DNA of 64,000 bases from an uncultured Verrucomicrobiota bacterium (GCA_964611575.1 CAZTAJ010000002.1:22582-86581); one strand, 5' to 3'. Counted from the first letter of the stretch, positions 37,860-61,536 are shown. Notes: generated by a model not told the origin, from the sequence alone. Program-made: numbers and translations.

Positions 37860-40800
37860 TCAGAGTGTTATCGGCAGACTGTCTCTGGCGCATTCAGCCT
37901 GCACAGCGCCCGGCAGGCGGAGAACCGTAGCGAAGTTATAGCCGACATCGCTGCTGGCGAGGGCGAGAATGATGTCCGGCGGTTTGGCCAGAGTTCGGAC
38001 GTCGAGTTCGCTGATCCCGGTCTTCTGAGGCCAGAGTTCGGTCTTTCCGTCTTTGAGAGCCTCCAGGGCCGCCACCAGACTCACAAGGATGGAGGCGGAT
38101 GCAATGTGGCCGGTGTTGAACGTCGTGGTGACCAGGGGCACTTCAGCGGATCGCTCGCCGAGGAGTTCGTCGACGATATCCGTGACTTTCAGGTCCACAC
38201 AGTTTCCCATGGGAGCCCAGACAATCAGTCCGATGTCTGCAGTCACGATGCCGGCGCGATCCATTGCCGATTTCACGGCGTGGCGCAGCCCATCACGGCC
38301 GAGGTTCTGGCCGGAAAACTGCTCTGCGTCCATGCTCATGCCGTAGCTCAGAATCTCCGCCAAGACGTTTGCGCCACGCTCTTTTGCGGACCCCAGAGGT
38401 TCAAGCACCAGCATCGCGGCGCCTTCTCCGAGCACTCGCTCTTGGCAGCGGTCGACTCGCAGCCGGTAATCAGCCTCTTCCTCCCCGCGGTAGAGGTAGC
38501 CGAACCGGTCGTAGTTCGCATAGGTCTGACCGTACACTTCGTCCGAAGCCCCCGCGAGAATGGCCTTGGCGCGGCCGTCTGAGATCATCTCACAAGCGTA
38601 GGCCAGACTCTGCAAGCCCGCGTGTGGACCGGGACTGAGCGACATGTTGACGCCCTTGAGGCACAGTCGCGCCGATACGTAACCGGCTGTGGAATTGGCG
38701 GTCACGGACGAAAATCCGGTGATGTCGGCCACGTGGTTGTCGCTGGTGAAAACACTGTCCATGTGCGCCATTTCTGACGCTCCGCAGCAGACGCCCATAA
38801 CAACGCCTACGTCGTCTGCGTTTTTCGGGCTGACCTTCAGGCTGGCATCTCGGAGAGCGAAACTGGATGCGGCAACGGCCAGCCTGCCGATGTCGGTCAA
38901 TCCCGAAAAGTCCAGCCGACGGTCGACTGCTGACGCTGCAAAGGCCTCGACGAGGCCCGCCAGGCGGGACTGCACATTGTCAAGCGCGAGCCTGTCGATG
39001 GGGCGCAGGCCCACCTTGCCGGCGCGCAGGGCCTGCAACGTTGTTTGTGAGGTAAGTCCCAGCGAGGTGACCAGGCCGGTGCCGGTAATGACAACGCGCT
39101 CCTCGCGGCGCGCGAGTGGCCGGATAGGAGCATCGCGGCCGGCGATGACCACCGCAGCGTTGTTGCCGCCAAAGGCGTAGTTCGCGGAAAGGAAGGCATG
39201 GTAGTTCTTGCTCCGCGCCTGGTTGGGAACATGGTCGAGGGGGCAGCCGGGGCGTGGGGAGGAGAAATTGATGGTCGGCGGGATGAATCCCTCGTTCATG
39301 GCGAACACATTGCACGTTGCTTCCAGGATTCCCGTCGCTCCCATGCAGTGCCCGAAGAACGACTTAAGCGAGACGGTCGGCAGGGGGGTATCCCCGAGAA
39401 ACCCTGCGATGCCTTTCGATTCCGCAACATCGTTGGCGGCGGTCCCTGTGCCGTGGGCGTTGATGCAGCCGAGGTCCCCTAACTCGAACCCGGAATCTCG
39501 GAGCGCATTGTGCAGGGTTCTCGACACGCCGCTCCCGCGGGGGTCGGGCGAGGTCGGATGGTAGGCGTCGGACGTCGTGGAGTTCCCTGCGATTCTTGCC
39601 GTCCAACGACCGTGTCGCAGCAGCACATGTTCCATGCTCTCCACAACCCAGAAACCGGCTCCTTCGCCGATGTTCAACCCTATGGGAAGTGAGAAGGGCG
39701 CCGTGCGCTCACTGGACATCGCTTTCAATGCGTCAAACCCGGACATATTGGCCAGGCAAAGAGCATCGGAGCCTCCGACAATCACCGTGCTGCAGCGGCC
39801 ACGGGCAATCAAATTTTGGGCCAGACCGAGCGCCCCGGTGGTTGAGGAGCAGGCTGTGGTGACGATCCATGTTTCGCCGCCCACGCCCAGCGCTCTGGCC
39901 ATGGCCTTCCCGAAACCGTAGAGTTCGGCCTGTGTGTTCAGTTTTTCGTCGGCGACCCTGGCGCTCTTTCCGTGTTTCCAGGCGTATTCCTGTTCGGCTG
40001 AGAGCAGGCCTCCGTTGCAGGTTCCGAGGACAAGGGCCACGTCACGCCGAACGGCGCCACCGGGCCAGTCAAGGCCCGAGTCCTTGATAGCCATTCTGGC
40101 TGCAGCGATCGCATAGAGAAGGTAGCGGTCATCGTACTCGGCGATTTCCGCATCGGTCAGCCATTCAAGCGGCTCGAAATCGTCGATTTGCCCGCCCAGT
40201 GACGAGCGAAAATGCGAGGTGTCAAAGCGGGTGATCGTGCGGATTCCGTGCCGGCCGTCTCTGAGCGCCTTGGTGACCGTGTCCCGGTCGTTTCCGATAG
40301 GACTGAGAATGCCGATTCCCGTGACGACCGCATGGCTATTGACGCCCTGTTTCTGTAAAGGCTTGCCTAGGATCTGGGCATTGTTCTCCCATGTTGCCGG
40401 CTCAAGGCTGGCAACGTGTTGGTCCTTCTTTAGCGCAAAGAAACCATTCCACACCTTCAGGAACTGCTCGTTGAGCTCATCAGGGGTCATGGTCTGAGGC
40501 CGGAAAACTACGTGTGCGCCATTGTAATGACTCCAATCCCGGTCGATGATCCGGTTCTGCCTCTCCATGCGTTCCCATAAAGGAGCCCCCGGGTATGGCG
40601 TGAAAATGAAGAACTCCGACGTGTGGATGTTGGCCTCGACGAAGAGCGAGAGGATGCGGTCGGCGATGCTGGTATCGTCCCAATCTCTACCCATTGCACA
40701 GGATCCGAAGAAACGGATATCCCGGTCCTCCAGTTTCTTGACGAGATCGATGAGAACCTGGCGAGCATTCTTGTCGCCCTGTAAGGCCCTGATGGAGATC

Positions 40801-41657
40801 GGGTCGACATTCATGGTGCAGTAGAAGTTCCGCACGCCGGCTTCTGCAATCAGGTCCAGGAACGAGGCATCGATGTTCAATGCCAGCGTCGAGGAAACAA
40901 AGTACTTCTTGTTGAGAGGCTTCAGTGCCGTGAAGAGTTCTCTGGCGTAGTCCTTGACCTGGCGCTGCGTGAAGAACAAGGAATCATCGGCCAGATAGAC
41001 GTTTTCATACTTGAGGGTCTTGATTTCCCGTACAACGTGCTCGACGGGACGGAAGCGCATGCGGTTGCCCATGTGCGCCGGGATCGCGCACATGGCGCAG
41101 GCGTACGAGCAGCCACGGGAGACCTGCACCAGGTCCTCATCCCAGTCGTAGGAGTCCTTGCTGTAGAAGATCTCACGTTTGGGGATGGGAAGCTTCGCAA
41201 GATCGAACCGGCATCCGCCGATGTACTTGCGTTTGAGCTGCCCCTGCCGGGCGTCCGCTAGAATGGTTTCCCATACGGGCTCGACTTCTCCCACGTTGAC
41301 GGCGTCGGCATGCTTCAAACACTCGTCAGGCATTGTGGACGGAAAGAACCCGCCCATAATGACCTGTTTGCCGTGCCGGCGAAAGCCGTCCGCGATCTCA
41401 AAGGCCCGAGTTGCCTGCGGAGTGAAACAGTTGATGGCCACCAGGTCGGTGTCGGCGGCGTAGTCAATGGCGTCGCCCCCGTTGTCGTCAATCAGTTCGA
41501 CATCGATCGACTCCGGCGTCAGGGCTGCCATGATCGGAATGCCAAGAGACGGCGGCGTCGTGAAATTGCCGAGAAAATAGCTGACCAGATCGCTATCCAG
41601 ATCCTTGCGAGATTCCAGAAACTTGGTGAATCGAGGATAGACGAAAGAAACCTTCAT
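37860..41657 (-). CDS. Tri-domain fusion: B12-binding radical SAM domain + beta-ketoacyl synthase (KS) + KS-like/chain-length-factor domain
   Basis: 1265 aa. The N-terminal 430 aa form a B12-binding domain plus a radical SAM domain (CSYACAMC = CxxxCxxC). The middle is a full KS (TTACSST active-site Cys, NAHGTGT, GHCMGATG). The C-terminal domain is a KS-fold without the canonical Cys-His-His triad, so it is CLF-like. Confidence 0.8.
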   Translation of the reverse strand: MKVSFVYPRFTKFLESRKDLDSDLVSYFLGNFTTPPSLGIPIMAALTPESIDVELIDDNGGDAIDYAADTDLVAINCFTPQATRAFEIADGFRRHGKQVIMGGFFPSTMPDECLKHADAVNVGEVEPVWETILADARQGQLKRKYIGGCRFDLAKLPIPKREIFYSKDSYDWDEDLVQVSRGCSYACAMCAIPAHMGNRMRFRPVEHVVREIKTLKYENVYLADDSLFFTQRQVKDYARELFTALKPLNKKYFVSSTLALNIDASFLDLIAEAGVRNFYCTMNVDPISIRALQGDKNARQVLIDLVKKLEDRDIRFFGSCAMGRDWDDTSIADRILSLFVEANIHTSEFFIFTPYPGAPLWERMERQNRIIDRDWSHYNGAHVVFRPQTMTPDELNEQFLKVWNGFFALKKDQHVASLEPATWENNAQILGKPLQKQGVNSHAVVTGIGILSPIGNDRDTVTKALRDGRHGIRTITRFDTSHFRSSLGGQIDDFEPLEWLTDAEIAEYDDRYLLYAIAAARMAIKDSGLDWPGGAVRRDVALVLGTCNGGLLSAEQEYAWKHGKSARVADEKLNTQAELYGFGKAMARALGVGGETWIVTTACSSTTGALGLAQNLIARGRCSTVIVGGSDALCLANMSGFDALKAMSSERTAPFSLPIGLNIGEGAGFWVVESMEHVLLRHGRWTARIAGNSTTSDAYHPTSPDPRGSGVSRTLHNALRDSGFELGDLGCINAHGTGTAANDVAESKGIAGFLGDTPLPTVSLKSFFGHCMGATGILEATCNVFAMNEGFIPPTINFSSPRPGCPLDHVPNQARSKNYHAFLSANYAFGGNNAAVVIAGRDAPIRPLARREERVVITGTGLVTSLGLTSQTTLQALRAGKVGLRPIDRLALDNVQSRLAGLVEAFAASAVDRRLDFSGLTDIGRLAVAASSFALRDASLKVSPKNADDVGVVMGVCCGASEMAHMDSVFTSDNHVADITGFSSVTANSTAGYVSARLCLKGVNMSLSPGPHAGLQSLAYACEMISDGRAKAILAGASDEVYGQTYANYDRFGYLYRGEEEADYRLRVDRCQERVLGEGAAMLVLEPLGSAKERGANVLAEILSYGMSMDAEQFSGQNLGRDGLRHAVKSAMDRAGIVTADIGLIVWAPMGNCVDLKVTDIVDELLGERSAEVPLVTTTFNTGHIASASILVSLVAALEALKDGKTELWPQKTGISELDVRTLAKPPDIILALASSDVGYNFATVLRLPGAVQAECARDSLPITL

Positions 41658-41725: not shown

Positions 41726-43171
41726 CTAATCCTTGGTCATTTTTCTGCCTGCCATGGCAAATCGAACGAAGTTGGCGAGATTCAGCACGAATCGCCGCCA
41801 ACTATCCGGTGAGCTCCAGAGCATGGCGAGATACCCTAGCCACACCTTGGGCCGCCGGTAATGCATCTGATAGAATCGGCCGTACAGTTGCTCGATGCGA
41901 GCCTTGGTGAACCCGGTGGGCACAAAAACGAAATGCATGCAATCCATCTGGGCCGGATCTTCATCGAAGGTCCCGAATTCCCCGATGTTCTCGTGGATTG
42001 GCGAGCCGGGAAACGGCGTGAACTTTGTCAGATTGAAGTCGTCGACCGGAAGCGAGAAAACGTACTTCATGCTGCGCTCGATGCTCTCCTCCGTTTCACC
42101 GGGTAACCCCATCATCAGCAAGCCCTTGGTCCTGATTCCCGCCTTCTTGATGTCGCGAATCCTCTGGGCCAGCAACTCAAGATCTGCGTTCTGGCGATGT
42201 TGCGACAGAAGATCAGGGTCGCCGGTTTCAATGCCCAGGCTGATCATCCAACACCCCGCCGCCTTCATTTGGCGCAACAGGTCCGGGTCAACGTGTTCGG
42301 CCCGCACGGCGCAATTGAACGTCATGCCCAGCGGTTTGTTGAGCAACAGGCTGCAGAAATCCCGGACTCTCTGCCGATGGAAGGTGAACTGGTCGTCGTA
42401 GAAGTTGACGTGGCGAATGTGCCATCGCTCCTTGAGGTAAAGCAGGTGTTCGTACAGGTACTCCGCCGAGTTAAAACGGAAGCTCTTTCGGAAGACGGAC
42501 CGGTCGCAGTAGCTGCACTCGTAAGGGCAGCCTCGACTTGAAATGCAGCTCGCGTTCGGAGCGCGCGGATAGTTAAAAATAGGCAGTTTGTAAACGTCGG
42601 GATACCCCGCCAGCTTCTCGTAGGCCGGAAAGGGAAGGCTGTCCAGATCGACTCCGTGCTGCCTGAATCCGGAGAAAGCGACCGTGTGCCCGTCGCGGTA
42701 GGTCAAGCCGGGTATGAGCCCGGGATTCGAATGACCGCTGCGCATTAACGCTTCGAGCGTTTCTTCTCCCTCGCCGACGACGGTGTAGTCGACCTCAGGG
42801 TTCTCCTCCAGGATTCGTTCGCGCAACGCCGACACATGCGGCCCGCCGAGAACCCCCTTGATTCCTGGCATCTCAACCTTGGCCAGCTTGATGATCTGCG
42901 TTGCATCGTGGAACCCGAACGTCGTGCAACCGACGCCGATGAATCCCGGTCGCCGGTCGCGTAGCAGTTCACGGATGAGCCCGCCCGAATCGGGCCACGC
43001 CACGCAATCGACGATATCCGCACGCAGCCCTTTTGATTCCAGGTAGGCGGCGATGCTGGCCATGCCCAGCGGGGGCATCAGGTTGGCGATGCGCGTGATG
43101 TCGCCACGTGCCTCTTCCGGACGATAGCCCAACGGATGAACCAGCAGAATGCGATTCTGATCAAGCGGCAT
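41726..43171 (-). CDS. B12-binding radical SAM protein (class B rSAM)
   Basis: 481 aa with an N-terminal cobalamin-binding Rossmann domain (GFIGVGCTTFGFHDATQIIKLAK) and a CPYECSYC radical SAM cluster motif. Confidence 0.85.
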   Translation of the reverse strand: MPLDQNRILLVHPLGYRPEEARGDITRIANLMPPLGMASIAAYLESKGLRADIVDCVAWPDSGGLIRELLRDRRPGFIGVGCTTFGFHDATQIIKLAKVEMPGIKGVLGGPHVSALRERILEENPEVDYTVVGEGEETLEALMRSGHSNPGLIPGLTYRDGHTVAFSGFRQHGVDLDSLPFPAYEKLAGYPDVYKLPIFNYPRAPNASCISSRGCPYECSYCDRSVFRKSFRFNSAEYLYEHLLYLKERWHIRHVNFYDDQFTFHRQRVRDFCSLLLNKPLGMTFNCAVRAEHVDPDLLRQMKAAGCWMISLGIETGDPDLLSQHRQNADLELLAQRIRDIKKAGIRTKGLLMMGLPGETEESIERSMKYVFSLPVDDFNLTKFTPFPGSPIHENIGEFGTFDEDPAQMDCMHFVFVPTGFTKARIEQLYGRFYQMHYRRPKVWLGYLAMLWSSPDSWRRFVLNLANFVRFAMAGRKMTKD

Positions 43172-43431
43172 GCGCCACTATAACACGATCCGAAGGGTGA
43201 CAGTCAACGCTGTGGAGCTATCGCGTTTGGCCTTTCCTCGGATGCCGGGAACGACTCCCTGCTTGCGCCCATCCCCGAGCTTTCGTAGCATTCCGATACG
43301 AAAGCATTCCTTACAGTCGTCCTCACGGGACGTGTGCCCCAACCGCAGGGAAGGCGAATCCTTATCTATTAGGGCTTTGCCTCGACGCAGATTTACCCAG
43401 AGGCGTTTGCCGCGACCGGGCATGAGGAACG

Positions 43432-44607
43432 ATGAAACCGCACAACGTCCAGTTCGACAATCTGATCGCACCCGGGCCTCCCCTGAAGAATGTGGTCGGC
43501 ACATATCCCGGCATTGGCGTCATGTCGGAACTGGTCGACGGTGTGGATGAGGTGGTGGATTTCAAGGGACGTCTCATCCGGCCGAACCCTAACCGCATGT
43601 CGACGCTGGATCTGGGGACCCAGTTCGCCCCCGAAGGGGCGTGTCTCCCGTTCAAGCTGATCATGGGTAACGTGATGGAGTCCCTCAATCGGGGCGCCAA
43701 CACGGTGGGAATGATTACAGAAAATGGGCCTTGCCGGTTGGGGTTCTACAGCCTCGGGATGCGATTGATCTTCAGTGACTTGGGTTTGGGGAACGGGTGG
43801 CTGGAATTCGACAATGCCAGTGTGAGCCGGGGTTACATCAAGTATTTCAGAGAGGCGTACCGGGAGACGCATGGAAAGGAACTCAGCGTCTGGAAGGTTG
43901 GCCAGGGCTTCTGGGTTGGCTTCAGCCGCATTACCGCCGTGGAGAAGCTCCAGGAAGAACGAAATCGCCTGTTAGCCTACGAGAGGGACGCGGGCAGTAT
44001 CAAGGCAGCCTACGACGAAGGGCTTGCGCTGATTCGCGCGGTGCAATCCCCGCTTGCCATGAGGGGGGCCGTCCGGAAGGCGATGCAGAAACTGCACGCC
44101 GTGCCGATCGACCGGTCGCGGGATACGGTCCGTGTGGCTATCACCGGCGAGGTTTACTGCGTGGTGGATCCCTTCGCCAACTCGGACGTGGAGATGCGAT
44201 TGGCGCGCTTGGGGGCGGAGCCGTTGCGCGTCATCTGGCAGGTGAACTATCTTCGCCACAAACTGCACTTGGACCATTTCAGGAAGATCAGCCACGGCCG
44301 GGCGGTGCGCGCGGCCAGGAAATACGTGGGGGAAGACATCGGCGGCGACTGCAACTCCAACATCGGCCATGCGGTTCTGGCTCACCAACGGGGAGATGAT
44401 GGCATGGTCCACGTGAAGCCATTTGGCTGCATGCTGGAGTTCGTGTCCGAGAATTTGCTGCAGAAGGTTGAGGAGGATCTGGACTTCCCCATTCTCAGTC
44501 TCACGCTTGACGATCTGTCGGGTGAGGAGCGGATCAATGTCCGGCTTCAGGCCTTTGTGGACAACCTGTTCCGCCGGAAACACAATCGCATGAAGGGGGG
44601 GCGGTAA
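43432..44607 (+). CDS. 2-hydroxyacyl-CoA dehydratase-like / acyl-CoA dehydratase activase-related protein (DUF2229/HGD-D family)
   Basis: 391 aa resembling the partner subunits of BadF/BcrA-type activases. No cysteine-cluster motif typical of HgdAB was confirmed. Confidence 0.6.
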   Translation: MKPHNVQFDNLIAPGPPLKNVVGTYPGIGVMSELVDGVDEVVDFKGRLIRPNPNRMSTLDLGTQFAPEGACLPFKLIMGNVMESLNRGANTVGMITENGPCRLGFYSLGMRLIFSDLGLGNGWLEFDNASVSRGYIKYFREAYRETHGKELSVWKVGQGFWVGFSRITAVEKLQEERNRLLAYERDAGSIKAAYDEGLALIRAVQSPLAMRGAVRKAMQKLHAVPIDRSRDTVRVAITGEVYCVVDPFANSDVEMRLARLGAEPLRVIWQVNYLRHKLHLDHFRKISHGRAVRAARKYVGEDIGGDCNSNIGHAVLAHQRGDDGMVHVKPFGCMLEFVSENLLQKVEEDLDFPILSLTLDDLSGEERINVRLQAFVDNLFRRKHNRMKGGR

Positions 44608-44608
44608 C

Positions 44609-45682
44609 TTGCCACGTCGCCTGGGCATCCTGCGCAGCCTGCTCTATTACCCCTTCTACCCGTTCTGGCACGCGTTCTTCGAGGATCTTGGGTTCTCCAT
44701 CGTCGTGTCCCCACCCCTGTCGAAGGATGATTTTGACCAGCGCCATCGTCATTTCGTAGGCGACATATGTCTCCCGATCGAATCGGCATTTTATCATGTC
44801 GAGGCCATCAAAGACCGTGTGGACATTCTCTTTCTTCCCCGCAACAATCGGATTCACAGAGATACTTATGTATGCCCTGCCTGTGCGGGCTTTCCATACG
44901 TGGTGATGCATAGGGTGCCCCAGTTACCGGATCTGCTGACGATTAACCTGACGCCTTTCCGGCCGCCGGACCGGAGCGACTGTCGGCGTCTCAGGGAGTT
45001 GGGGTGTTCCTCGGGCCAGGTGAAGGCGGCTTATCGAAACGCGCAGCACCGATATCGCGATTTCATCGATTCCTTGTCCGAGCATCCACACCTTGATCAA
45101 GCGATCGACCGATTTGTTGCCGTAGCCTCGGAGTTGCCCGCGCGCCGTCCAACTGCGCCCAGAAACACGGGTGCGCACATTCTCCTGTTGGGCATGCCAT
45201 ACGTGCTGGCTGATCCCTTTGTGAACCAGAGCATCCTGTCAACCCTTGAAAGTTTCGGGTGCCGGGTGTCCACTCCCATGATGCAAGTGCCGGAGTTGGC
45301 ATCGCAGGAGGTTATGATTGAGGGGTACGCCATCTATTGGAGTTTTGCGGGGATGAGTGTCGCCGCACTGGAGAAGTCGCTGCATGCGCGCGACGTGGAT
45401 GCGGTCGTTTACTGTTCATCCTTTGCCTGCGGCGTGGATAGTCTGATCACCCCGATCATTCAGTCCGCCTGTCAACGCTGCTATGACATTCCCCTCTGTA
45501 TTCTCACGATGGATGAGCATTCGGAGGGCTCTTACCTGAATGTTCGAATGGAAGCCTTTCTTGATTGCGTCAACTCCCGGCTTGCCCAACGGACTGACGC
45601 CGCAGAGACTCAGCCCGTACCGCAAGCCTCAGAGGCCAATGCACAGGATGCCCGTCATGATAGATACAACCGAGATGGCTGA
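44609..45682 (+). CDS. Acyl-CoA dehydratase activase-related protein, second DUF2229/HGD-D-like subunit
   Basis: 357 aa. The N-terminus LGILRSLLYYPFYPFWHAFFEDLGFSIVVSP is characteristic of this family. It abuts the previous gene with a 1-bp gap. Confidence 0.6.
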   Translation: MPRRLGILRSLLYYPFYPFWHAFFEDLGFSIVVSPPLSKDDFDQRHRHFVGDICLPIESAFYHVEAIKDRVDILFLPRNNRIHRDTYVCPACAGFPYVVMHRVPQLPDLLTINLTPFRPPDRSDCRRLRELGCSSGQVKAAYRNAQHRYRDFIDSLSEHPHLDQAIDRFVAVASELPARRPTAPRNTGAHILLLGMPYVLADPFVNQSILSTLESFGCRVSTPMMQVPELASQEVMIEGYAIYWSFAGMSVAALEKSLHARDVDAVVYCSSFACGVDSLITPIIQSACQRCYDIPLCILTMDEHSEGSYLNVRMEAFLDCVNSRLAQRTDAAETQPVPQASEANAQDARHDRYNRDG

Positions 45683-46649
45683 TCAGCCGGAATGCAGTCG
45701 CCAGGAATGGAGTCTGGGTGTTGATATTGGCTCCGTCACCATCAAGTTCGTTCTGATGGACGCGGCCGGAGAGGTGCGCTACGACTCGTATGCTCGCACG
45801 GAAGGCTCCCCGGTCCATGCGCTGTCTGTTGGCGCGAGACAGGTGCGGGAGCAACTCCCCAAGGGCACGGAGATCGGTGCCGTGGGCACGACGGGGAGCG
45901 GTCGGTTCCTGGCGGGCGCGTTTCTGGGCGCGGATGTCGTGAAGAACGAGATCACTGCGCATGCCGTGGGCACGCTTCATTGGCGAAACGATATTGCCAC
46001 CATTATCGAGATCGGCGGCCAGGACTCCAAGATTATCCATCTCCGCGATGGGATGGTCCGTGATTTTGCAATGAACACGGTCTGTGCAGCAGGCACAGGC
46101 GCTTTTCTCGACCAGCAGGCCTTTCGGCTCAAGATCCCCATTGACGAGTTTGGCCCCTTCTCTCTTAAGGCGGAGAGACCGTTGAGGATCGCGGGCCGAT
46201 GCTCGGTCTTCGCGGAATCCGACATGATCCACTACCAGCAGACGGGGCATGAGAAGGCCGATATCTGCATGGGGCTTTGCCAGGCACTGGTCCGAAACTA
46301 CCTTAATAACGTTGCGCGGGGGAAGGCCATCCGGGGGCCGGTGTCGTTTCAGGGTGGGGTCGCCTTCAACCCGGCCATCCTCAAGTGCTTCCGGGACGCG
46401 TTGCCTGGGCGGGAGATCGTGACCCCGCCGCATTCGACGGGTTGTGGCGCCATGGGTGCGGCCCTGCTGGCCCGCGAGGCCGTCGGCGATGGCCGAACCG
46501 CATTCCGCGGCTGGCAGGAGGGTGACTTCCGCATTAGCCAGGGAACCTGTCCGCATTGTGGCAACCAATGCAAGATCTGCAGCCTGAACGGTGAGCAAGG
46601 AGCACTTGCCCGGTGGGGCGGCCGCTGCGATCGTGGGAATGCGCTATGA
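45675..46649 (+). CDS. CoA-substrate-specific enzyme activase (BadF/BadG/BcrA/BcrD ATPase family, HgdC-like)
   Basis: It has ASKHA-fold motifs LGVDIGSVTIKFVLMD and IEIGGQDSKII, plus a conserved Cys pair for a bridging [4Fe-4S]. The ORF begins at 45540. The preferred start at 45675 overlaps the upstream stop (ATGGCTGA). Confidence 0.75.
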   Translation: MADQPECSRQEWSLGVDIGSVTIKFVLMDAAGEVRYDSYARTEGSPVHALSVGARQVREQLPKGTEIGAVGTTGSGRFLAGAFLGADVVKNEITAHAVGTLHWRNDIATIIEIGGQDSKIIHLRDGMVRDFAMNTVCAAGTGAFLDQQAFRLKIPIDEFGPFSLKAERPLRIAGRCSVFAESDMIHYQQTGHEKADICMGLCQALVRNYLNNVARGKAIRGPVSFQGGVAFNPAILKCFRDALPGREIVTPPHSTGCGAMGAALLAREAVGDGRTAFRGWQEGDFRISQGTCPHCGNQCKICSLNGEQGALARWGGRCDRGNAL

Positions 46650-48073
46650 AGAGAATCCTGCTGGTCAAACCCGATTCCGAGTTGACGGTCGTGAAGCGGC
46701 TGCGGGCCTTTCTCCATCTCGAGCCGCTGGAGCTTGAGCACCTGGCCGGAGCCGTGCCGCCGGGACATGATGTGCGCATCCTCGACATGACGGTCGAGAC
46801 ATGGCCTCTGCGGGCCCTGCGACGAACCGTCCGTTGTGACCGGCCGCACCTGGTCGGGGTGACCGCCTACAGCAACCAGCGGGCGCGGGTGGCCGCTTGC
46901 ATCCGTATCATCAGGGAGGAAGCCCCGGATGCGTTGATCGTGCTGGGCGGTCACCACGCCACCATCATGCCGCACGATTGCCGGATTCCGCACCTCGACG
47001 CGATCGTGCGTGGCGAAGGGTGCGCGACCTTCCGGAAGATGATTGAGGTGCTGGGCGCCGGTAGGGACGCGGTCCTGGCGATACCCAATGTCTACGCCCC
47101 GGATGCAGCGGATTTCGGGGAGGTGCCGCCCTATCCCGGCATCGACACTCTGCCGCTGCCCCGGCGTGATCTCGTGGATGGACGAAAGTACTTTTGCGCT
47201 TGGAGCACCCCCAACAAGGCCGCCAACGCGTCCATCCTGCCGGTGGTGGCCAGTATGCGAACGTCCTTCGGCTGCGCTTACCAGTGCAGTTTCTGCATCG
47301 TGCCGGAGCTCTGCGGCCGGAAGTACTTCCCGAGGAACATCGACAGCATTGTCGATGAGCTCGAATCGCTGGCCACCGATTACGTCTACTTCGTCGATGA
47401 CGAGACGTTTCTCTCGCCCCGCCACATGTGGGACCTGGGCAGGAAGATTCAGGAACGCGGCATCAAGAAGCATTACGTCTCCTGGGCCAGGAGCAATACC
47501 GTCACCACGAACCCGGATCTGTTCAAGTTCTGGCACGAGATCGGGCTCGACATCGTCTATGTGGGCCTGGAAAGCATCAATGATGCGACCCTCATGAGTC
47601 TCAATAAGAAGGCGACCCTCGCGCAGAACGAAGAGGCCATCCGAATCCTCCACGAGTGTGGAATCACGCTCCATCCGGCGTTCATGGTCATGCCGGAGTT
47701 CACTGCCGAGGATTTCCGAGCGCTCAATGACTACGTTCAGGCCATGCCGCCCGTGGAGGCGACGTTCACGGTCTACTCGCCGTCGCCGGGAACCGAAGAC
47801 TGGAAGAGACATGCCGACGACTTCATCTGCGATCCCATCCGGTTCTACGACTGCATGCATACGATTTTGCCCACCCGTTTGCCGTTGAAGGAGTTTTATC
47901 GGCACTTCGCGCAACTCACCGTCCGAGCCCTGAACCGGAACCCTGTGCGGGTGAACAGGACCAGGGTGAAGTTCCGGGAACTCCTGAAGATCGTGTGGAT
48001 GACGGGCCGCTATATTCGGACCCAGCGCAACATGTGGCGTGACTACCGGGGAGTTCGAGCGGGTGGTGCGTGA
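46646..48073 (+). CDS. B12-binding radical SAM protein (class B rSAM), second copy
   Basis: It has an N-terminal B12-binding domain and a CAYQCSFC radical SAM motif. Its start overlaps the activase stop (ATGA). Confidence 0.85.
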   Translation: MKRILLVKPDSELTVVKRLRAFLHLEPLELEHLAGAVPPGHDVRILDMTVETWPLRALRRTVRCDRPHLVGVTAYSNQRARVAACIRIIREEAPDALIVLGGHHATIMPHDCRIPHLDAIVRGEGCATFRKMIEVLGAGRDAVLAIPNVYAPDAADFGEVPPYPGIDTLPLPRRDLVDGRKYFCAWSTPNKAANASILPVVASMRTSFGCAYQCSFCIVPELCGRKYFPRNIDSIVDELESLATDYVYFVDDETFLSPRHMWDLGRKIQERGIKKHYVSWARSNTVTTNPDLFKFWHEIGLDIVYVGLESINDATLMSLNKKATLAQNEEAIRILHECGITLHPAFMVMPEFTAEDFRALNDYVQAMPPVEATFTVYSPSPGTEDWKRHADDFICDPIRFYDCMHTILPTRLPLKEFYRHFAQLTVRALNRNPVRVNRTRVKFRELLKIVWMTGRYIRTQRNMWRDYRGVRAGGA

Positions 48074-49086: not shown

Positions 49087-49495
49087 AGTATTCGATCCTT
49101 CTGCAAAACGTCCTCTTTGAGGCTCGCCCATCACTCTTCAGGTCAGTCCTGCCAAGCACAGTCTTGAATTGTGTTTCGATTCCACTCATTTTCTCAGGAG
49201 GAAAACGTCATACGTTACACCCCTTTCGCTTTGCTTGTTCTCGCCGCAGTGTCGAACCCATCTCGCTGAATTGCCCTATATCAAATATTCCGGGAGTGAC
49301 AAGAACATTGTTCTGGTTTTCGCATGGGGTTTTCGCTTGTCGGGCGTATCGGCGCTGTGACAGCATGGCAGTGTTGATGCTCCAACCGAGTCTTGGACTG
49401 GGCTTAGGGACGACGGCCCGATAATGGAGGCAGTTGCATGTTCCCGCTGGGTGCTGCAAAGGCGATCAAGGCGGCGCGTTCGATCATATGAATTC

Positions 49496-50947
49496 ATGAT
49501 GAATCTCGCTGACTTGCTGCAACATGCTGCCGCGCGATATCCCGAAAACATTGCGGTTTCGGATGGTGAGCGTGCGCTGACCTATGCAGAACTGTGGCAG
49601 GAGGTTTGCCGTGCCGCCGGGGAACTGGAGGCCGTGGGGATCGGTCGCGGCCGGATGGCGGGCCTTCAGTTGGGGAACAGCATTGCATTCATCATACTGA
49701 CCTATGCGTTGTGGCGCTGTGGGGCGGTGGTTGTCCCTATTCCCATGGAGATGCGGGAGTCGGAGAGAACCGAATTGCTCCGCACGATGGACTTGGCCGC
49801 CGTGTTGTCGAGTACGGCACCGGTGGGTGAGCACGCGACCGTGGCAATCGATGTCGCGGGCACAGCCATAACGGGCACCGTATTCCATAGGGGCAGCGCG
49901 CCGATCAGGGACAAGGTCAATGCCGCCATGGTGCGGTTCACATCAGGAACAACCAACGCCAACAAGGGGGTTGTGCTTTCTCACGAGGGCATACTGGAAC
50001 GCATCACGGCCGCGAACAATGCGTTGCATATTGGCCCGGGCGACACCGTAATGTGGTGCCTCCCCATGGCTCACCACTTCGTGGTTACGATCATCCAGTA
50101 CCTTTGGCAGGGGGCGAAAATCGTTCTCATCAGGAACACGGCAGGCCAACCCTTCCTTGATGCGATCATCGAGAACCGGGGCACAGTCTTGTACGCATCG
50201 CCGTTTCACTACGATGCGCTTTCACAAGACGCGTCGGGACGTGGGATCTCGTCTGTGCGCATGGCCATCTCAACGACCACGGCCCTTCCGGCCGATACGG
50301 CGCTCCGTTTCTTCGATCGGTACGGCCTGCACCTCATCCAAGCCTACGGAATCATTGAACTCGGGCTGGCTTGCGTCAATGTCGATGATCCGGCCGGCCG
50401 GCCGACATCGGTCGGGCAGCCGACCCCGGGATTCAGGTTGCGGCTTGCCAACGGAGAGCAGTACATCGGGCTTGGCGAGGGATGTGGCGAAATCGAGGTC
50501 TCCGGCCCCGGGTTCTTCGCGGCCTATTATCATCCGTGGGTTGCCGCCCGCGACGTCATGGATGGCCCGTGGTTTCACACTGGTGACGTGGGCAGAATCG
50601 ACAGCGACGGGTTCCTCTTCCTCTACAGTCGGGTCAACAGCGTCATCAATATCGCGGGAATGAAGGTTTTTCCGGAAGAAATTGAGCACGTACTGGACTC
50701 GCACGACTTCGTGAAGGAGTCGCGGGCCTACGCGGTGAAGCATGCCCACCTGGGGGAGGTCGTCCAGGCCGATGTTGTGCTGCGCCACGGCGTTGCAGCG
50801 GTGTCTGAGGATGACCTCCGAACGCATTGCGCGCAGCGACTCTCTTCTTTCAAGGTGCCGAACAGGATTCGATTCCTGGACGGCATTGACAGGACATCGA
50901 CCACCCTCAAGATCAAACGACACACAGCACCGGAGTCGGCCACTTGA
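49496..50947 (+). CDS. AMP-dependent synthetase/ligase (fatty-acyl or aryl-AMP ligase; ApeH-like starter-loading enzyme)
   Basis: It has an adenylation core A3-like motif FTSGTTNANKGVVLSH and an A8-like GWFHTGDVGRIDSDGFLFL. Start trimmed to MMNLADLL. Confidence 0.8.
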   Translation: MMNLADLLQHAAARYPENIAVSDGERALTYAELWQEVCRAAGELEAVGIGRGRMAGLQLGNSIAFIILTYALWRCGAVVVPIPMEMRESERTELLRTMDLAAVLSSTAPVGEHATVAIDVAGTAITGTVFHRGSAPIRDKVNAAMVRFTSGTTNANKGVVLSHEGILERITAANNALHIGPGDTVMWCLPMAHHFVVTIIQYLWQGAKIVLIRNTAGQPFLDAIIENRGTVLYASPFHYDALSQDASGRGISSVRMAISTTTALPADTALRFFDRYGLHLIQAYGIIELGLACVNVDDPAGRPTSVGQPTPGFRLRLANGEQYIGLGEGCGEIEVSGPGFFAAYYHPWVAARDVMDGPWFHTGDVGRIDSDGFLFLYSRVNSVINIAGMKVFPEEIEHVLDSHDFVKESRAYAVKHAHLGEVVQADVVLRHGVAAVSEDDLRTHCAQRLSSFKVPNRIRFLDGIDRTSTTLKIKRHTAPESAT

Positions 50948-51939
50948 GCGAACCGACGACAACAAGTGATGCCATTTCCTCCGTCGGCTCATCGGAGACG
51001 GTGCGGCGCGAGGCTGCGGCGGCGACCCAAGCCGCCTATCGATCATCCAAGTGGTCCGGAAAGACCAGGGGTGGATCCCTGGGCAACTGGTACTTCCTGC
51101 AAGTGATAAGGCTCCTGGGAATACGGGCGGCGTACGTTGCCCTTGTGCCCATCGCGGCATATTATCTGATTGCGAGTCCCCGGAGCGTAAAGAACTCCCG
51201 CCGTTATCTCCGGCGTGTGTTGGGGCCGAAGTCGTTCTGGCGATGGCCCTTCCTGGTATATGGTCACTTCTTCTCCTTGGGCATGAGTCTGCTTGACCGG
51301 TCCGCCATGCTGATGGGGCGCAAGGAGTTTACATGCACCTACGATGGAGAGGGCAGAATCGCGAACGCGCTTGCCTATGGGAAAGGCGTCATTCTAGTCA
51401 GCGCTCATGTCGGGAACTGGGCGGCCGGCGGGCATCTTCTCCGGCGTTTGAACACGCGCGTCAACATGGTGGCGCTGGAGAACGAGGTCAAGAGCATCCA
51501 GCGGATGTTTGACCGGGCATTTCCGGACAAGGGATTCGGGGTTCTCTCCTCCAGTCCCGATCTCACATCAAGCATGGCGATCATGGATGCCTTGCGGCGA
51601 GGGGAGATCGTGGCATTCAATGGCGACCGGACGGTTGAAGGCGCGGCCAGCGTAGAGACGACCTTTTTCGGGGACGTGGCCGATTTTCCGGTGGGTCCCT
51701 ACCTGCTGGCGTCGGTGACCGGGTCGCCGGTGATCCACGTTTTTGCCATGCGGGACGGGGTTGATCGGTATAGATTCTTCTGCTCGACAGCCAGGTTTGT
51801 CGAGAGGACTTCCAGGCAAAAGCGGCAGGAAGTGGTGAGGGCCGTTGCAGGGGGCTTTGCACACGATCTGGAAACGGTGCTCAGAAGGTATCCGTTCCAG
51901 TGGTACAATTTCTACCCGTTCTGGAAGAAGGAAACCTGA
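50944..51939 (+). CDS. Lipid A biosynthesis (LpxL/HtrB)-like lysophospholipid acyltransferase (ApeD-like)
   Basis: 331 aa in the LPLAT/HtrB family. Its start overlaps the upstream stop. Confidence 0.7.
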   Translation: MSEPTTTSDAISSVGSSETVRREAAAATQAAYRSSKWSGKTRGGSLGNWYFLQVIRLLGIRAAYVALVPIAAYYLIASPRSVKNSRRYLRRVLGPKSFWRWPFLVYGHFFSLGMSLLDRSAMLMGRKEFTCTYDGEGRIANALAYGKGVILVSAHVGNWAAGGHLLRRLNTRVNMVALENEVKSIQRMFDRAFPDKGFGVLSSSPDLTSSMAIMDALRRGEIVAFNGDRTVEGAASVETTFFGDVADFPVGPYLLASVTGSPVIHVFAMRDGVDRYRFFCSTARFVERTSRQKRQEVVRAVAGGFAHDLETVLRRYPFQWYNFYPFWKKET

Positions 51940-51972
51940 TCTCTGGCGGGCTGAACACCGAGAGGAATCCGC

Positions 51973-52395
51973 ATGGAATTGATGGACATCGAAGAGGTTA
52001 TACCGCATCGGCCGCCGATGCGGATGATCGATGCCTTGACGGAGTGGAGTGACGACTCCGCGAGCGGGGTCGTCGTCTTCGATGGAAATCACATGGCGGT
52101 GCATGACGGCCTGGTTGTTGAGTCGGCGCTTGTCGAATGCATTGCCCAGACAGTTGCCGCGATGGAGGGCGCCAAGCGGGTTGCCTGCGAAAGCCCGCGT
52201 GGTCCTGCCGGGGAGCAGGTGGGCATGCTGTGCGGGGTGTCTGATTTTGCTGTCGTCAGGCGGCCGCGAGCGGGGGATCGGTTGGAGATCCGGGTTCAAG
52301 TCCGCAAGAGGCTTGGACCGATGCTGCTTGCAGACGGCCAGGTCTTGTGTAATGGACACATCGCGGCTGCAGGATCGTTGAAACTTTCAGGCTAA
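51973..52395 (+). CDS. FabA/FabZ-like 3-hydroxyacyl-ACP dehydratase (hotdog fold)
   Basis: 140 aa. The N-terminus IPHRPPMRMID matches the FabZ-like IPHRxPxxxxD signature. Confidence 0.7.
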   Translation: MELMDIEEVIPHRPPMRMIDALTEWSDDSASGVVVFDGNHMAVHDGLVVESALVECIAQTVAAMEGAKRVACESPRGPAGEQVGMLCGVSDFAVVRRPRAGDRLEIRVQVRKRLGPMLLADGQVLCNGHIAAAGSLKLSG

Positions 52396-52413
52396 ACGCT
52401 TGGCGCAGAGCCC

Positions 52414-52908
52414 TTGGGAGACGACACAATGGGAGTCAGGAGAAAACGGAGGCGGCGCTCTATCGAGGAGGCCCGCAGCTATCTGTCCGAGGAGACGCAA
52501 GTGCGCGTGCGTTTCCATGAGGTGGATTCCATGCGTATTGTCTGGCATGGACACTATGTGACCTACTTCGAGGATGCGCGACGGGCCTTCGGACGTCGCT
52601 ACGGGCTCGACTATCCCGTCTTTCTTGAAAACAACATCGGCGCGCCGGTGGTGAGCGTGTGGGTCGATTTTCTCTCTCCGGCCTTGGGGAACGACCTGTT
52701 GGAGGTGGAGGCGCGCCTGTACAAGTCGGAAGGCGCCCAGCTCGAATTCAGCTACGAGGTGAAGCGCGCCCAAACGGGCGTTCTGCTCGCCAGCGGCGGC
52801 AGCGTGCAGGTGTTCACCACATTGAAGGGAGAATTGTTGCTGACTTGGCCGGCTCTGATGCTCGAGCGCTATGAGGCATGGAAAGACTTATGGATCCCCT
52901 CCGCTTGA
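52414..52908 (+). CDS. Acyl-CoA/acyl-ACP thioesterase (4HBT/YbgC-like hotdog)
   Basis: 164 aa with the motif FHEVDSMRIVWHGHYVTYFEDAR, typical of 4HBT thioesterases. Confidence 0.7.
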   Translation: MGDDTMGVRRKRRRRSIEEARSYLSEETQVRVRFHEVDSMRIVWHGHYVTYFEDARRAFGRRYGLDYPVFLENNIGAPVVSVWVDFLSPALGNDLLEVEARLYKSEGAQLEFSYEVKRAQTGVLLASGGSVQVFTTLKGELLLTWPALMLERYEAWKDLWIPSA

Positions 52909-54089
52909 AGGGAGCCGTGGCCGTTGCCGGCCTGGGGGTGGTGTCTGCCGCCGGAGACGGCGCCGACGCCACGTTGCTGTCCATTAAGGCAAACAGCGTG
53001 GAACTGCACGAGTGCGTCAGATATCGCGACGCCCTTTACATGACGAATCGCGTGGGGGCGGTGTCTGATCGCGTCTGGAGTTTGCTTGGCGGACCGGACG
53101 CCGGGCCCGCCGATTCCCGCACCTTTCAACTGGCGAATCGTGCGCTGGTCGAGGCGGTTCGGCAGGCGGGCCCGCAACTGGCCGATGTTGACGCCCAGCG
53201 AGTGGGCTTGGTGTTGTCCACGACCAAGGCCGAGATCGACGCGTTGGGTTCTCTCGTGGCCGGTGGCCATTGCAGTGACCGGTCGCGGCGGCATATCCTC
53301 GCGTCTCAACTCGCGGCTGACTTGGCTTCCGCCAACCACGCGTTCGGACCGCTTCAGTGTGTCTCCGTCGCCTGTATATCCGGTCTGCTGGCGATCCAGC
53401 AGGGGGTGCGGTTGATTCTTGCCGGCATCGCCGATGCGGTGCTCGTCGTTGGAGCCGACGTACTTTCGCACTTTGTCCTTGCGGGATTTAGCGCCTTGAA
53501 ATCTCTCGACCCTTGCGGATGCCGCCCCTTTGACAAGGATCGACAGGGCTTGAGCCTGGGCGAAGGCGCTGGCGCACTGGTGCTGGTTCGGTCAGATCTG
53601 GTTTCCGCTCCGCTGGCGACGATCACGGGATGGGGCGTTAGCAATGATGCCAATCATCTGACAGGTCCTTCCCGGGACGGCTCGGGACTGGCGCTCGCCA
53701 TTAAGCGAGCCTTGCGCATGGCCAACCGGACTCCCGACTCCATTGAGTATATCAACGCCCATGGAACCGGTACGGTCTACAACGACAGGATGGAAGCGCT
53801 GGCTTTCAGGACGGTCTTCGGTAGCCGCTCGCCTTGGGTCACCTCCTGCAAGGGATTGCTCGGGCACACGCTGGGAGCGGCCGGAGTTATCGAGAGCGCC
53901 ATCTGCATTCTGGCTGCCCGCGCTCAGGTCATGCCGGGGACGCCTGGATTCAGCCGTCCGGATGAGGAGGCTCCCGTTCGCGTGGCGGCCACCCCGCGGT
54001 GTTCGGTTTCCTACAGTCGAATCTTGAAGACCAACGCCGGGTTTGGCGGCACGAACAGCGCACTGGTTCTGGAGGTGCCCCCCCCATGA
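52890..54089 (+). CDS. Beta-ketoacyl-ACP synthase (KS, FabF-like; ApeO-like)
   Basis: It has the active-site Cys (SVACISGL), NAHGTGT and GHTLGAAG. The ORF starts at 52878 and is trimmed to MDPLRL. Confidence 0.85.
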   Translation: MDPLRLKGAVAVAGLGVVSAAGDGADATLLSIKANSVELHECVRYRDALYMTNRVGAVSDRVWSLLGGPDAGPADSRTFQLANRALVEAVRQAGPQLADVDAQRVGLVLSTTKAEIDALGSLVAGGHCSDRSRRHILASQLAADLASANHAFGPLQCVSVACISGLLAIQQGVRLILAGIADAVLVVGADVLSHFVLAGFSALKSLDPCGCRPFDKDRQGLSLGEGAGALVLVRSDLVSAPLATITGWGVSNDANHLTGPSRDGSGLALAIKRALRMANRTPDSIEYINAHGTGTVYNDRMEALAFRTVFGSRSPWVTSCKGLLGHTLGAAGVIESAICILAARAQVMPGTPGFSRPDEEAPVRVAATPRCSVSYSRILKTNAGFGGTNSALVLEVPPP

Positions 54090-54796
54090 CACGTGAAGTG
54101 ATTGCCGTTGCGGCCAGCTACATGACGCCCGAAGGCTACGGTAGCAGCGCCTTTGGCCGTCGTCCATGGAGGGATGGCCATGGGGAGCCGTGCGAACAAA
54201 AAGAGTTGATGGGCATACCCTGGTTGTCGCTGTTCTCGGTGCCGTGTCCTCGATTCGGCCGGATGTCCCCGCTCACCAGACTAGGTTTGATGGCGGTCGA
54301 ACTGCTCGACGTTGGCTTTGCCGATATGACTGAGGAGCAGAGGACGGACACAGGCCTCTGCATGCTCAGTCCTTTTGGGTCCATGGCGACGGACATCGAG
54401 TTCCTGAGGGAACCCGGCCCCGCCTCCTTCGCCTACACGCTGCCCAGTAGCGTGATCGGAGAGGTGTCCATACGACACCGGCTGCGGGGGCCCGGTCTGT
54501 GCCTGATGTCCGCGGGAAACACGGGGCGCAGCATTGTCGAAGAAGCATCGGAGCGGATCGCGATGGGGGAAGCCGAGTCCATGTTGTGCCTTTTCTGTGA
54601 CGCGCAGGGGGATGAGACTCGCGATCTCCTCAAGTATACACTTGATCGGGATGACAAGTTCTGCTGGTATGCCTACGCATTGTACCTTGTGCGGAAAGGC
54701 CCCGTTCCAGGCCCAGGCAAGACTGTCGCGGGAGGGGTGTTCGCATCCGGTACGGATATCTGTGGGATGTGTCTGGATCTGTGCGGGAATAAGTGA
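54086..54796 (+). CDS. Chain-length-factor-like small KS-fold protein (ApeC-like)
   Basis: About 236 aa with a KS N-terminal-like fold lacking the catalytic Cys. Its start overlaps the KS stop (ATGA), consistent with a KS/CLF heterodimer. Confidence 0.6.
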   Translation: MTREVIAVAASYMTPEGYGSSAFGRRPWRDGHGEPCEQKELMGIPWLSLFSVPCPRFGRMSPLTRLGLMAVELLDVGFADMTEEQRTDTGLCMLSPFGSMATDIEFLREPGPASFAYTLPSSVIGEVSIRHRLRGPGLCLMSAGNTGRSIVEEASERIAMGEAESMLCLFCDAQGDETRDLLKYTLDRDDKFCWYAYALYLVRKGPVPGPGKTVAGGVFASGTDICGMCLDLCGNK

Positions 54797-54866
54797 CGTA
54801 GGCCGGGAGATATGGCGTGTGGGGTCCGGTGGGTGCCTCACGTGATCGAACATTTGGAGATGGACC

Positions 54867-57544: not shown

Positions 57545-57584
57545 GAAACGATCGACGCCTGAAGCGCAAGGGGGTACCACTCGG

Positions 57585-57980: not shown

Positions 57981-58058
57981 CGAGACGAGCGTATCTCCAT
58001 AATCTAAGATCACGCTTTCAGAAAGCTTGACGCATAACACATCAGGGAGGGTCCAGAA

Positions 58059-58634: not shown

Positions 58635-58665
58635 GGCGACGAAGGAGAGGACCCGCTGGCTGACG

Positions 58666-61451: not shown

Positions 61452-61536
61452 TGATGCACTCGAATCCTCTTTGTGAGGTGGACCGTCCATCCTCACGATT
61501 GACCTCGTGGCCGCTTGATGGCACCATTTCTGACAG

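Follow-up and report, generated by a model that had tools for sequence, protein, structure and literature searches.

Three adjacent genes in a 64,000-nt stretch of DNA from an uncultured Verrucomicrobiota bacterium (GCA_964611575.1, CAZTAJ010000002.1:22582-86581; hereafter the window) encode what, judging from the protein sequences, is an oxygen-sensitive radical enzyme made up of three subunits, a member of the benzoyl-CoA reductase (BCR)/2-hydroxyacyl-CoA dehydratase (HAD) superfamily that belongs to its DUF2229 branch. The genes, here g1, g2 and g3, sit in an island of lipid-biosynthesis genes and had been described in an earlier note on this DNA as an HgdC-type ATPase with two dehydratase-like partner subunits; their domain make-up leads us to describe them as a split, single-activase, DUF2229-type radical reductase that is hard-wired to a B12-binding radical SAM (B12-rSAM) enzyme encoded directly downstream. 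As for what such an enzyme would do, we posit, by analogy, an ATP-driven, ketyl-type reduction of a lipid acyl oxygen-ester (ester to ether) that would proceed alongside B12-rSAM tailoring, a reading to which we give a probability of about 0.4. Considering that the nearest characterised relatives by domain family make ether lipids, and that the operon is shared with a B12-rSAM gene, the trio probably tailors an unusual lipid rather than replacing ordinary fatty-acid reductases.

The g3 protein matches the BcrAD_BadFG profile from end to end (PF01869; 143.2 bits against a cutoff of 31.5, profile positions 1-271 of 271) and also exceeds the cutoff for acyl-CoA dehydratase activases (TIGR00241; 170.9 against 125.4 bits). 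Among proteins of known structure its best sequence match is MbdQ (6e-36), followed by HgdC (9e-33), with HadI also matched and DCCP-R at 1.4e-21. Both cysteines that bridge the [4Fe-4S] cluster are present: C137 (NTVCAAGTG) and C176 (RCSVFAESD) align with the motifs of HgdC (DKCAAGTG and CTVFAESE) and MbdQ, and are kept in all 16 of the 16 ATPase sequences aligned. The assignment of g3 to the BadF/BcrA/HgdC-family ATPases is thus secure.

The two partner proteins had been called DUF2229-like, and both do match PF09989 above its gathering threshold, g2 along almost the whole profile (121.6 bits, positions 2-215 of 218) and g1 marginally (30.6 bits against a cutoff of 29.4, positions 133-212 only). 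Against HGD-D (PF06050), g1 and g2 score 17.5 and 23.5 bits respectively, both below the cutoff of 28.4 and over the C-terminal part only; the NCBIfam search returned no family for either protein, and a phmmer search of the PDB with g2 gave no match even at E<=1. The two are paralogues, scoring ~45 bits against each other by BLAST. When their AlphaFold2 models (pLDDT 84.7 for g2 and 83.4 for g1) were compared with the PDB using Foldseek, the top 20 matches of each consisted solely of HadBC, DCCP, BzdNO and MbdON (E 1e-9 to 2e-5, TM ~0.4-0.6, identity 9-15%, probability 1.0), the best match of g1 being DCCP (7yzm_A, 1.4e-9). Family alignments reveal exactly three invariant cysteines in each subunit, namely C71 (EGACLPFK), C101 (GPCRLG) and C333 (KPFGCM) in g1, and C54 (GDICLP), C89 (YxCP) and C274 (SFACGxDS) in g2. 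Furthermore, a profile of the g2 family reaches the C-termini of DCCP and HadC (E ~2e-5) and sets C274 opposite a cysteine in each; we take these cysteines of HadBC and DCCP to be cluster ligands. On the strength of the models, then, g1 and g2 are paralogous subunits with a predicted HAD/BCR/DCCP catalytic fold. Conservation of the cysteine ligands, proposed earlier as a check, is borne out in all three proteins, and the cluster cysteines of g3 together with the folds of g1 and g2 make the description of an HgdC-type ATPase with two dehydratase-like partners valid at the level of the superfamily. Below that level, 'dehydratase-like' holds for the fold and the cysteines, with DUF2229 rather than HGD-D as the closer family.

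Which branch of the superfamily do these proteins belong to? The 2-hydroxyacyl-CoA dehydratases and their activators (HgdC/HgdAB and HadI/HadBC; PDB 1HUX, 4EHT, 3O3M) share with the trio a homologous activase with its two cluster cysteines and a catalytic fold with three cysteine ligands per subunit, g1 and g2 matching HadB/HadC at E ~1e-9 and TM 0.5-0.6. Unlike HgdAB and HadBC, to which identity is only 12-15%, g1 and g2 occur in a lipid and B12-rSAM context and not one of amino-acid fermentation; neither a CoA-transferase nor a 2-hydroxyacid dehydrogenase gene is present in the window island or in related loci of the same type (type A, defined below), and g3 has an additional four-cysteine tail. 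Class I BCRs (BcrABCD, BzdNOPQ, MbdONPQ; PDB 8S02, 9G87, 9GAI) likewise resemble the trio in the catalytic-subunit fold, in the match of g3 to MbdQ and in their ATP-coupled low-potential electron transfer, but they have two different ATPase subunits where the trio has a single gene, no aromatic-degradation genes lie nearby, and scores against the BCR equivalog models fall far short of the cutoffs (TIGR02259, 101 against 578 bits; TIGR03192, 93 against 380; TIGR02261, 72 against 313). DCCP with its reductase DCCP-R (PDB 6ENO, 7YYL) was also considered, given the Foldseek match of g1, the reach of the g2 family profile and the homology of DCCP-R to g3. DCCP forms homodimers with six cysteines as ligands of an [8Fe-9S] cluster, and membership was rejected on account of the two different subunits here, with three invariant cysteines each and not six.

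To our knowledge, the only characterised members of the DUF2229 branch are the plasmalogen synthase PlsA/PlsR (Clostridium perfringens CPE1194/1195) and the glycerol ester reductase Ger (Thermotoga maritima Tmari_0479/AGL49404 and Desulfatibacillum alkenivorans SHJ90043). In its published architecture PlsA consists of Act1-Act2-Red1 and PlsR of Red2, whilst Ger is described as having a pair of PF01869 domains, PF09989 after them and short PF09989/PF06050 pieces at the end (BBDHDDH); the core of two PF01869 activase domains followed by PF09989 DUF2229, hereafter B-B-D, is conserved in all alkyl-ether producers (PMC13159169). The trio contains the corresponding parts, in that a PF01869 activase accompanies a PF09989 reductase module and a second, weakly HGD-D/DUF2229-like module, such that g2 would correspond to Red1 and g1 to Red2/PlsR, the latter equivalence being suggested by size and order. 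The setting among lipid and acyltransferase genes is shared too. A BLAST matrix resolved two orthogroups: the g1-type, to which window g1 belongs together with its homologues from Asgard and Eubacteriaceae and the HGD-D-like subunit from another type of trio, and the g2-type, which comprises their DUF2229 counterparts. In an Asgard B-B-D fusion (L023:11415-14372, with Pfam domains B, B and D; L and P numbers are our handles for loci and contigs), the D domain scores 47-100 bits against g2-type and 21-32 bits against g1-type proteins. In addition, a g2-like part makes up the N-terminal half of a 731-aa protein (P0090) and a g1-like part its C-terminal half, with 31% identity of each to its window counterpart; this fusion shows that g2 and g1 work together and mirrors the order in the C-terminal, reductase part of Ger. 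Taken with the Pfam scores and the cysteine-rich linker described next, the orthogroups and this fusion favour the DUF2229 branch over that of the acyl-CoA dehydratases.

The tail of g3 is a C-terminal extension of ~50 residues with four cysteines, C292, C295, C299 and C318 (window positions 46548-46628), in the motif F(R/K)G ... C-x2-C-x-N-x-C-E ... WGxRC. Every trio ATPase that we aligned has kept this extension, whether of type A, type B, Eubacteriaceae or Asgard origin, and in B-B-D and B-D fusions (L023:11415-14372 and P0051) it connects the last activase domain to DUF2229. The solved activators matched by g3 (HgdC, HadI, MbdQ and DCCP-R) are only 243-276 aa long and do not have it. We take the DUF2229-associated activases to have this module as a shared derived character, as the sequences suggest; the module has not been described before as a feature of this enzyme branch. 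The bit scores of g3 agree with this placement, descending from 293-325 against the ATPases of other trios, through 195-219 against B-B-D proteins, to 117-127 against HgdC and MbdQ.

All three open reading frames are real genes by sequence, Pfam matches, confident AlphaFold2 models and recurrence, the same gene set being found on more than 15 independent contigs and so not arising by chance. The start of g2 at a TTG places its N-terminus in line with the starts of its homologues, and the most likely start of g3 is the ATG at 45675, gene callers on identical contigs having taken 45648 or 45657. The junctions had been reported as ATGA or 1-bp: this is right for g1/g2, separated by a 1-nt spacer (TAA c TTG), whereas g2 and g3 overlap by 8 nt (ATGGCTGA; 26 nt if g3 starts at 45657), and the ATGA overlap in fact joins g3 to the B12-rSAM gene downstream (46646-46649). 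No second trio exists in the 64,000 nt. Around the operon a promoter and terminator scan found no signal above chance, and an Rfam search of the whole window matched neither a riboswitch nor any other RNA family.

The trio does lie, as had been noted, between two B12-rSAM genes, and it is with the downstream one that its association is tightest. The best NCBIfam match of the downstream protein (B12rSAM_b) is the hopanoid/lipid methylase HpnR (229 bits, below the cutoff of 650), and those of the upstream, divergent one (B12rSAM_a) are BchE and HpnJ, also below cutoff. The order g1-g2-g3-B12-rSAM, with the radical SAM gene directly after g3, occurs in the window and in four further loci (L013, L093, L094 and L173). 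In L006, L011 and L015 the orthologues of B12rSAM_b stand elsewhere in the cluster; in L014, an 8-kb Kiritimatiellae contig, there is a sole B12-rSAM beside the trio. B12rSAM_a is kept beside the trio in L093 and L094 and is absent in L173. Indeed, a B12-rSAM gene is found within the fetched flank of every type-A locus save one, a Desulfobacteraceae locus (L012) whose trio is accompanied by non-B12 radical SAM genes only. Could the trio, then, be no substrate-transforming enzyme at all, and instead an ATP-driven supply of low-potential electrons to the neighbouring B12-rSAMs, aimed at their [4Fe-4S] cluster or at cob(II)alamin by analogy with the RACE-type corrinoid activators? Reduction of cob(II) to cob(I) needs a very low potential, and ASKHA ATPases carry it out in acetogens, which together with the ATGA coupling and the four-gene operon speaks for the idea. 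Two HAD-like subunits with three-cysteine, open-site clusters are however typical of substrate-binding catalytic modules and not of electron carriers, homologous trios are abundant without any radical SAM gene nearby, and the Desulfobacteraceae trio has no B12-rSAM gene in its fetched flank; we hold this explanation to be quite improbable.

The relatives closest to the window trio keep the operon without the ketosynthase (KS) and acyl carrier protein (ACP) genes that surround it here. In L173, whose g1 is 89% identical and whose protein is found on 20 contigs, the operon stands amid pseudopilin, PilM/N, rubrerythrin, sulfatase and NADH-dehydrogenase-type genes, with neither KS nor ACP within 10 kb; in L093 and L094 (94% identical), LysRS, MacB-like and thioredoxin-domain genes border the two B12-rSAMs and the trio at one end, with an ABC exporter at the opposite end (ABC_membrane and ABC_tran, directly downstream in L093). 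These relatives at 89-94% identity thus have the operon among housekeeping genes and no KS or ACP within 6-10 kb. At 80% identity, L013 likewise has the operon without KS genes, and no KS was found in the flanks at hand of the trios in L004 (Planctomycetota) and L012. It follows that the conserved functional unit is the trio plus a B12-rSAM, for which a KS/ACP cluster is a frequent but not obligatory neighbour. The earlier note had held that a housekeeping unit recurring outside biosynthetic contexts would tell against its proposal, and this is partly what emerges, both from these loci and from the wider family, which is often found outside biosynthetic clusters.

Is the operon, in that case, a unit of general housekeeping or catabolism in anaerobes, for instance for the dehydration of organic or amino acids, that has come to lie beside a lipid cluster by accident? 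The contexts of L173, L093 and L094 would fit, as would the generic trio family, which occurs widely among Clostridia and further anaerobes, in varied surroundings. An exhaustive HMMER search with the g2 profile matched 3810 cluster representatives at E<=1e-3, 852 of them still at E<=1e-30, mostly stand-alone proteins of 300-380 aa with some fusions of 690-770 aa; a g1-type search with Firmicute and Asgard queries gave 2794 matches, many of them from cultured Clostridia and named 'CoA protein activase' or 'acyl-CoA dehydratase activase-related protein' (C. perfringens was not among the best 120 matches listed, whereas Clostridia were). Generic trios, with the order g2-g1-ATPase and 26-32% identity to the window, are a common self-contained unit in metagenomes, and just one of the 16 such loci whose flanks extend 6 kb or more in both directions has even a weak match to the lipid-cluster genes of the window. 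Against an accidental neighbourhood, the type-A orthogroup (at least 44% identity in g2 or at least 48% in g1, with the order g1-g2-g3) recurs in the same kind of lipid cluster across several phylum-level groups, and its association with B12-rSAM genes is near-universal; we regard a housekeeping role as very improbable.

Some 10 type-A loci lie inside aryl-polyene or 'ladderane-type' clusters: the window (L001), L006, L175, L011, L015 and L016 (Verrucomicrobiota), L010, L098, L174 and the P0028 contig. Their hosts comprise several phylum-level groups (Verrucomicrobiota and two unclassified metagenome-assembled genomes) plus unassigned metagenome contigs. The clusters contain KS and chain-length-factor (CLF) genes, ACP, ApeI/ApeP-like dehydratases, a 4HBT thioesterase, an LpxL-like acyltransferase, an AMP-ligase, a glycosyltransferase and B12-rSAMs, often with LolA and MMPL as well. 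Six of them (L006, L175, L010, L098, L174 and the P0028 contig) also contain a paralogous type-B trio, consisting of DUF2229, HGD-D-like and ATPase genes, which adjoins type A at L006:4947-7986, L010:145-3099, L174:3315-6246 and L098:3223-6151; its gene order is that of the Asgard and Firmicute trios, and it is absent from the window. On the P0028 contig (ENA ERZ1426830), an 869-aa protein with a hydrazine-synthase-alpha-like domain (PF18582) is encoded just upstream of the type-A/type-B pair, and URO-D, MFS and AraC genes lie nearby, similar genes also being found upstream of the window island. In relatives, a radical SAM-SPASM protein different from that of the window is fused to an ApeP-like dehydratase and encoded directly after the trio.

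A link to lipids is suggested by several further features. A scan of GTDB with a mixed alignment and one peptide pattern gave a result dominated by Asgard loci (L020-L092), in which a ~563-aa PlsC-type acyltransferase gene, giving two matched Pfam stretches, directly precedes the g2-like gene (<=400 nt) in 63 of the 73 loci and is present somewhere in the locus in 71. Sixteen of the loci go on with a g1-like gene and a single ATPase, and nine have a ~985-aa B-B-D protein instead; the set includes Lokiarchaeum ossiferum (L082, CP104013:3414148-3435140). From its gene content, this arrangement looks like a conserved archaeal module that would 'acylate then reduce' a lipid, and Ger homologues in Asgard archaea have been reported earlier (Sahonero-Canavesi et al.). 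The lipid link draws also on the LpxL- and PlsC-like acyltransferases of the window cluster, on the likeness of B12rSAM_b to HpnR, on the exporter gene of L093 and on P0057, a 615-aa protein from a JGI metagenome contig of 2190 bp. In the latter, a VTT/DedA multi-transmembrane domain and a full-length type-A g1 form one in-frame fusion, the transmembrane segments lying N-terminally within residues 1-203 and the g1 part being 59% identical to window g1.

Should the trio reduce an acyl oxygen-ester, the mechanism could be envisaged as follows. A g3 homodimer, as known for the family, would hold a bridging [4Fe-4S] cluster on C137 and C176, which ferredoxin or flavodoxin would reduce; ATP hydrolysis by g3 would then drive a low-potential electron into the g1/g2 heterodimer, where each subunit would bind a [4Fe-4S] cluster through its three cysteines. 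Ligation by three cysteines would leave one iron open for the carbonyl oxygen of the substrate, and the carbonyl would become a ketyl radical that undergoes reduction or elimination. The likely substrate would be an acyl oxygen-ester in a membrane lipid or glycolipid, converted to an alk-1-enyl or alkyl ether as by PlsAR and Ger, enzymes defined by the anoxic conversion of sn-1 acyl esters to vinyl or alkyl ethers, with the co-transcribed B12-rSAM methylating or otherwise tailoring the same lipid. In the window, the cluster would build the acyl chain, and its two O-acyltransferases (LpxL-like, 50944-51939; PlsC-like, 61537-62340) could create such esters.

Several observations weigh against this reading. 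PlsA and Ger have two fused activase domains, and the trio departs from this B-B-D architecture, being three genes in the order g1-g2-g3 with one separate activase gene downstream; nor is a pairing with a B12-rSAM gene described in the PlsAR and Ger literature that we examined. The comparison with PlsA, PlsR and Ger was made by Pfam domains and published architectures, sequence likeness being distant and to uncharacterised B-B-D proteins, with window g2 scoring only 47 bits against a B-B-D D domain, and identity to the nearest trios outside type A is only ~30%. The DUF2229 family is very large and almost wholly uncharacterised. Generic trios have no conserved neighbour, the most frequent reaching at most 7 of 34 loci, and one Eubacteriaceae trio lies amid aminomutase, TRAP-transporter and SHMT genes and not lipid genes. 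The P0057 fusion is a single 2.2-kb contig, and no VTT/DedA genes were found near other trios. Beyond the gene structure, folds, cofactor ligands, family relationships and operon conservation that the analysis shows, it is the substrate, the product and the radical SAM partnership that we infer, including that the B12-rSAM and the trio would share a substrate.

All structurally characterised relatives (HadBC, BzdNO and MbdON) use CoA thioesters, which speaks for the idea put forward in the earlier note, that the trio acts on an ACP- or CoA-bound thioester, either an intermediate or a starter of the KS/ACP pathway. The possible reactions would include ketyl-radical dehydration of a 2-hydroxyacyl group, reduction of a conjugated polyenoyl chain, or, where the AMP-ligase would load an aryl starter, the Birch-type dearomatisation of that starter. 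The trio is indeed embedded in a KS/ACP lipid island, as had been stated, and so are the other type-A loci listed above; some of these clusters have two paralogous trios adjoining KS genes, and no ketoreductase (KR) or enoylreductase (ER) is found among the window-cluster genes scanned. On the other side stand the close relatives whose operons have no KS or ACP nearby, the PF06050 scores of both subunits, and the absence of a dienoyl-CoA hydratase besides the CoA-transferase and 2-hydroxyacid dehydrogenase already mentioned. The best matches of the AMP-ligase, all below cutoff, are fatty-acid ligases and not benzoate-CoA ligases, and a benzoate-type starter was rejected for this reason. In the BCR/HAD family, ATP-coupled electron injection serves very low-potential reductions, not beta-keto or enoyl reduction. 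The specific proposal that the trio replaces the missing KR and ER functions is therefore not borne out, as it would spend ATP on easy reductions that do not call for such electrons. Thioester chemistry as a whole we consider rather unlikely, and if it did hold, an ATP-driven ketyl-radical enzyme would be seen for the first time in a type II polyketide synthase/fatty acid synthase-like pathway.

If, on the other hand, the ester-to-ether reading is true, PlsA/Ger chemistry also exists in a three-gene, single-activase form, which searches with full-length Ger or PlsA would miss (the published criterion for Ger is E<=1e-50 and >=30% coverage of the T. maritima protein). More bacteria, and possibly Asgard archaea, would then be able to make ether lipids, which bears on the 'lipid divide' debate and on the question of which organisms make the branched ether lipids that palaeoclimate work uses as biomarkers. 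One component of the product-less 'ladderane-type' clusters found in many anaerobic phyla would, moreover, gain a testable function. A bolder version, which we view as a long shot, is that the four-gene operon is an unrecognised anaerobic machine for methyl-branched or radical-modified ether lipids, or else supplies the radical step that is missing from the 'ladderane-type' clusters, such as a transformation of a polyene chain set off by a ketyl radical; in the former case, its hosts (unclassified metagenome-assembled genomes, Verrucomicrobiota, Kiritimatiellae and Desulfobacteraceae) would be a candidate source, and the operon a candidate pathway, of orphan branched alkyl-glycerol-ether lipids in anoxic sediments. 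Whilst the family assignment itself is unsurprising, the points of interest are the operon partnership, the four-cysteine module and the possible link to orphan ether or branched lipids.

The features of the trio and its island are collected in Table 1.

Table 1. The trio, its radical SAM neighbours and the surrounding lipid island, in window coordinates
Feature	Position	Strand	Description
B12-rSAM + KS + second KS/CLF-like fusion	37860-41657	-	1265 aa; Pfam, NCBIfam; left island end
B12rSAM_a	41726-43171	-	B12-binding radical SAM (Pfam); divergent from g1
Intergenic region, B12rSAM_a to g1	43172-43431		260 bp, divergent; presumed promoter region
g1	43432-44607	+	391 aa; Red2/PlsR-like putative catalytic subunit, 'g1-type'
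g2	44609-45682	+	357 aa, TTG start; Red1-like putative catalytic subunit, 'g2-type', full-length DUF2229
g3	45675-46649	+	Activase ATPase, ASKHA fold, 324 aa from ATG 45675; alternative start 45657
B12rSAM_b	46646-48073	+	B12-binding radical SAM (Pfam B12-binding + Radical_SAM); fourth operon gene, ATGA-coupled to g3
Rest of aryl-polyene/'ladderane-type' lipid cluster	49424-62340	+	Pfam, precomputed ApeP-like call, NCBIfam PRK09185/PRK09184 matches
Alpha/beta-hydrolase + radical SAM/SPASM fusion	59865-61451	+	528 aa; right end of lipid cluster

The lipid island (~37.8-62.3 kb) has a G+C content of 56-62% against 65-70% in the region upstream, a contrast with which its horizontal acquisition is compatible. 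In the fusion protein at its left end, a B12-binding/radical SAM part (aa 36-323) is followed by a FabF-like ketosynthase (443-838) and a second KS/CLF-like half (853-1205), an architecture that would physically couple radical chemistry with chain elongation. The remaining cluster encodes, in order, the AMP-ligase, the LpxL-like acyltransferase, an ApeP-like dehydratase, a 4HBT thioesterase, a KS, a CLF-like protein, an ACP, an 805-aa KS, a secreted 198-aa protein, a GT28-like glycosyltransferase, the hydrolase-radical SAM-SPASM fusion and the PlsC-type acyltransferase. In KS/CLF, ACP, ApeI/ApeP, thioesterase, LpxL-like acyltransferase, AMP-ligase and B12-rSAM genes, and in the LolA and MMPL of its relatives, it resembles the 'ladderane-type' and aryl-polyene biosynthetic gene clusters; those of the former antiSMASH class in non-anammox bacteria have been reported in Desulfobacterota, Verrucomicrobiota, Planctomycetota and other phyla, with products unknown. 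In the ladderane papers that we examined, no activase-type gene is described: Rattray et al. (2009) make no mention of activase, benzoyl-CoA, hydroxyglutaryl or BadF, and the ladderane-cluster description in a 2026 review of lipid radical SAM enzymes includes no such gene. A true anammox ladderane cluster was rejected on this ground and on that of the G+C content of 56-70%.

Upstream of the island (1-37800), the window contains type II secretion/type IV pilus genes, CinA, ABC/HlyD/OEP efflux genes, MetH and MTHFR. A 1526-aa open reading frame on the minus strand there (8717-13297) has no Pfam match, is rich in Ala, Glu, Arg and Gln and is apparently coiled-coil; positions 9665-11065 hold a 414-nt tandem repeat in 3.4 copies with 90% matches, in a region whose AT skew is strongly negative (-0.27 to -0.41).

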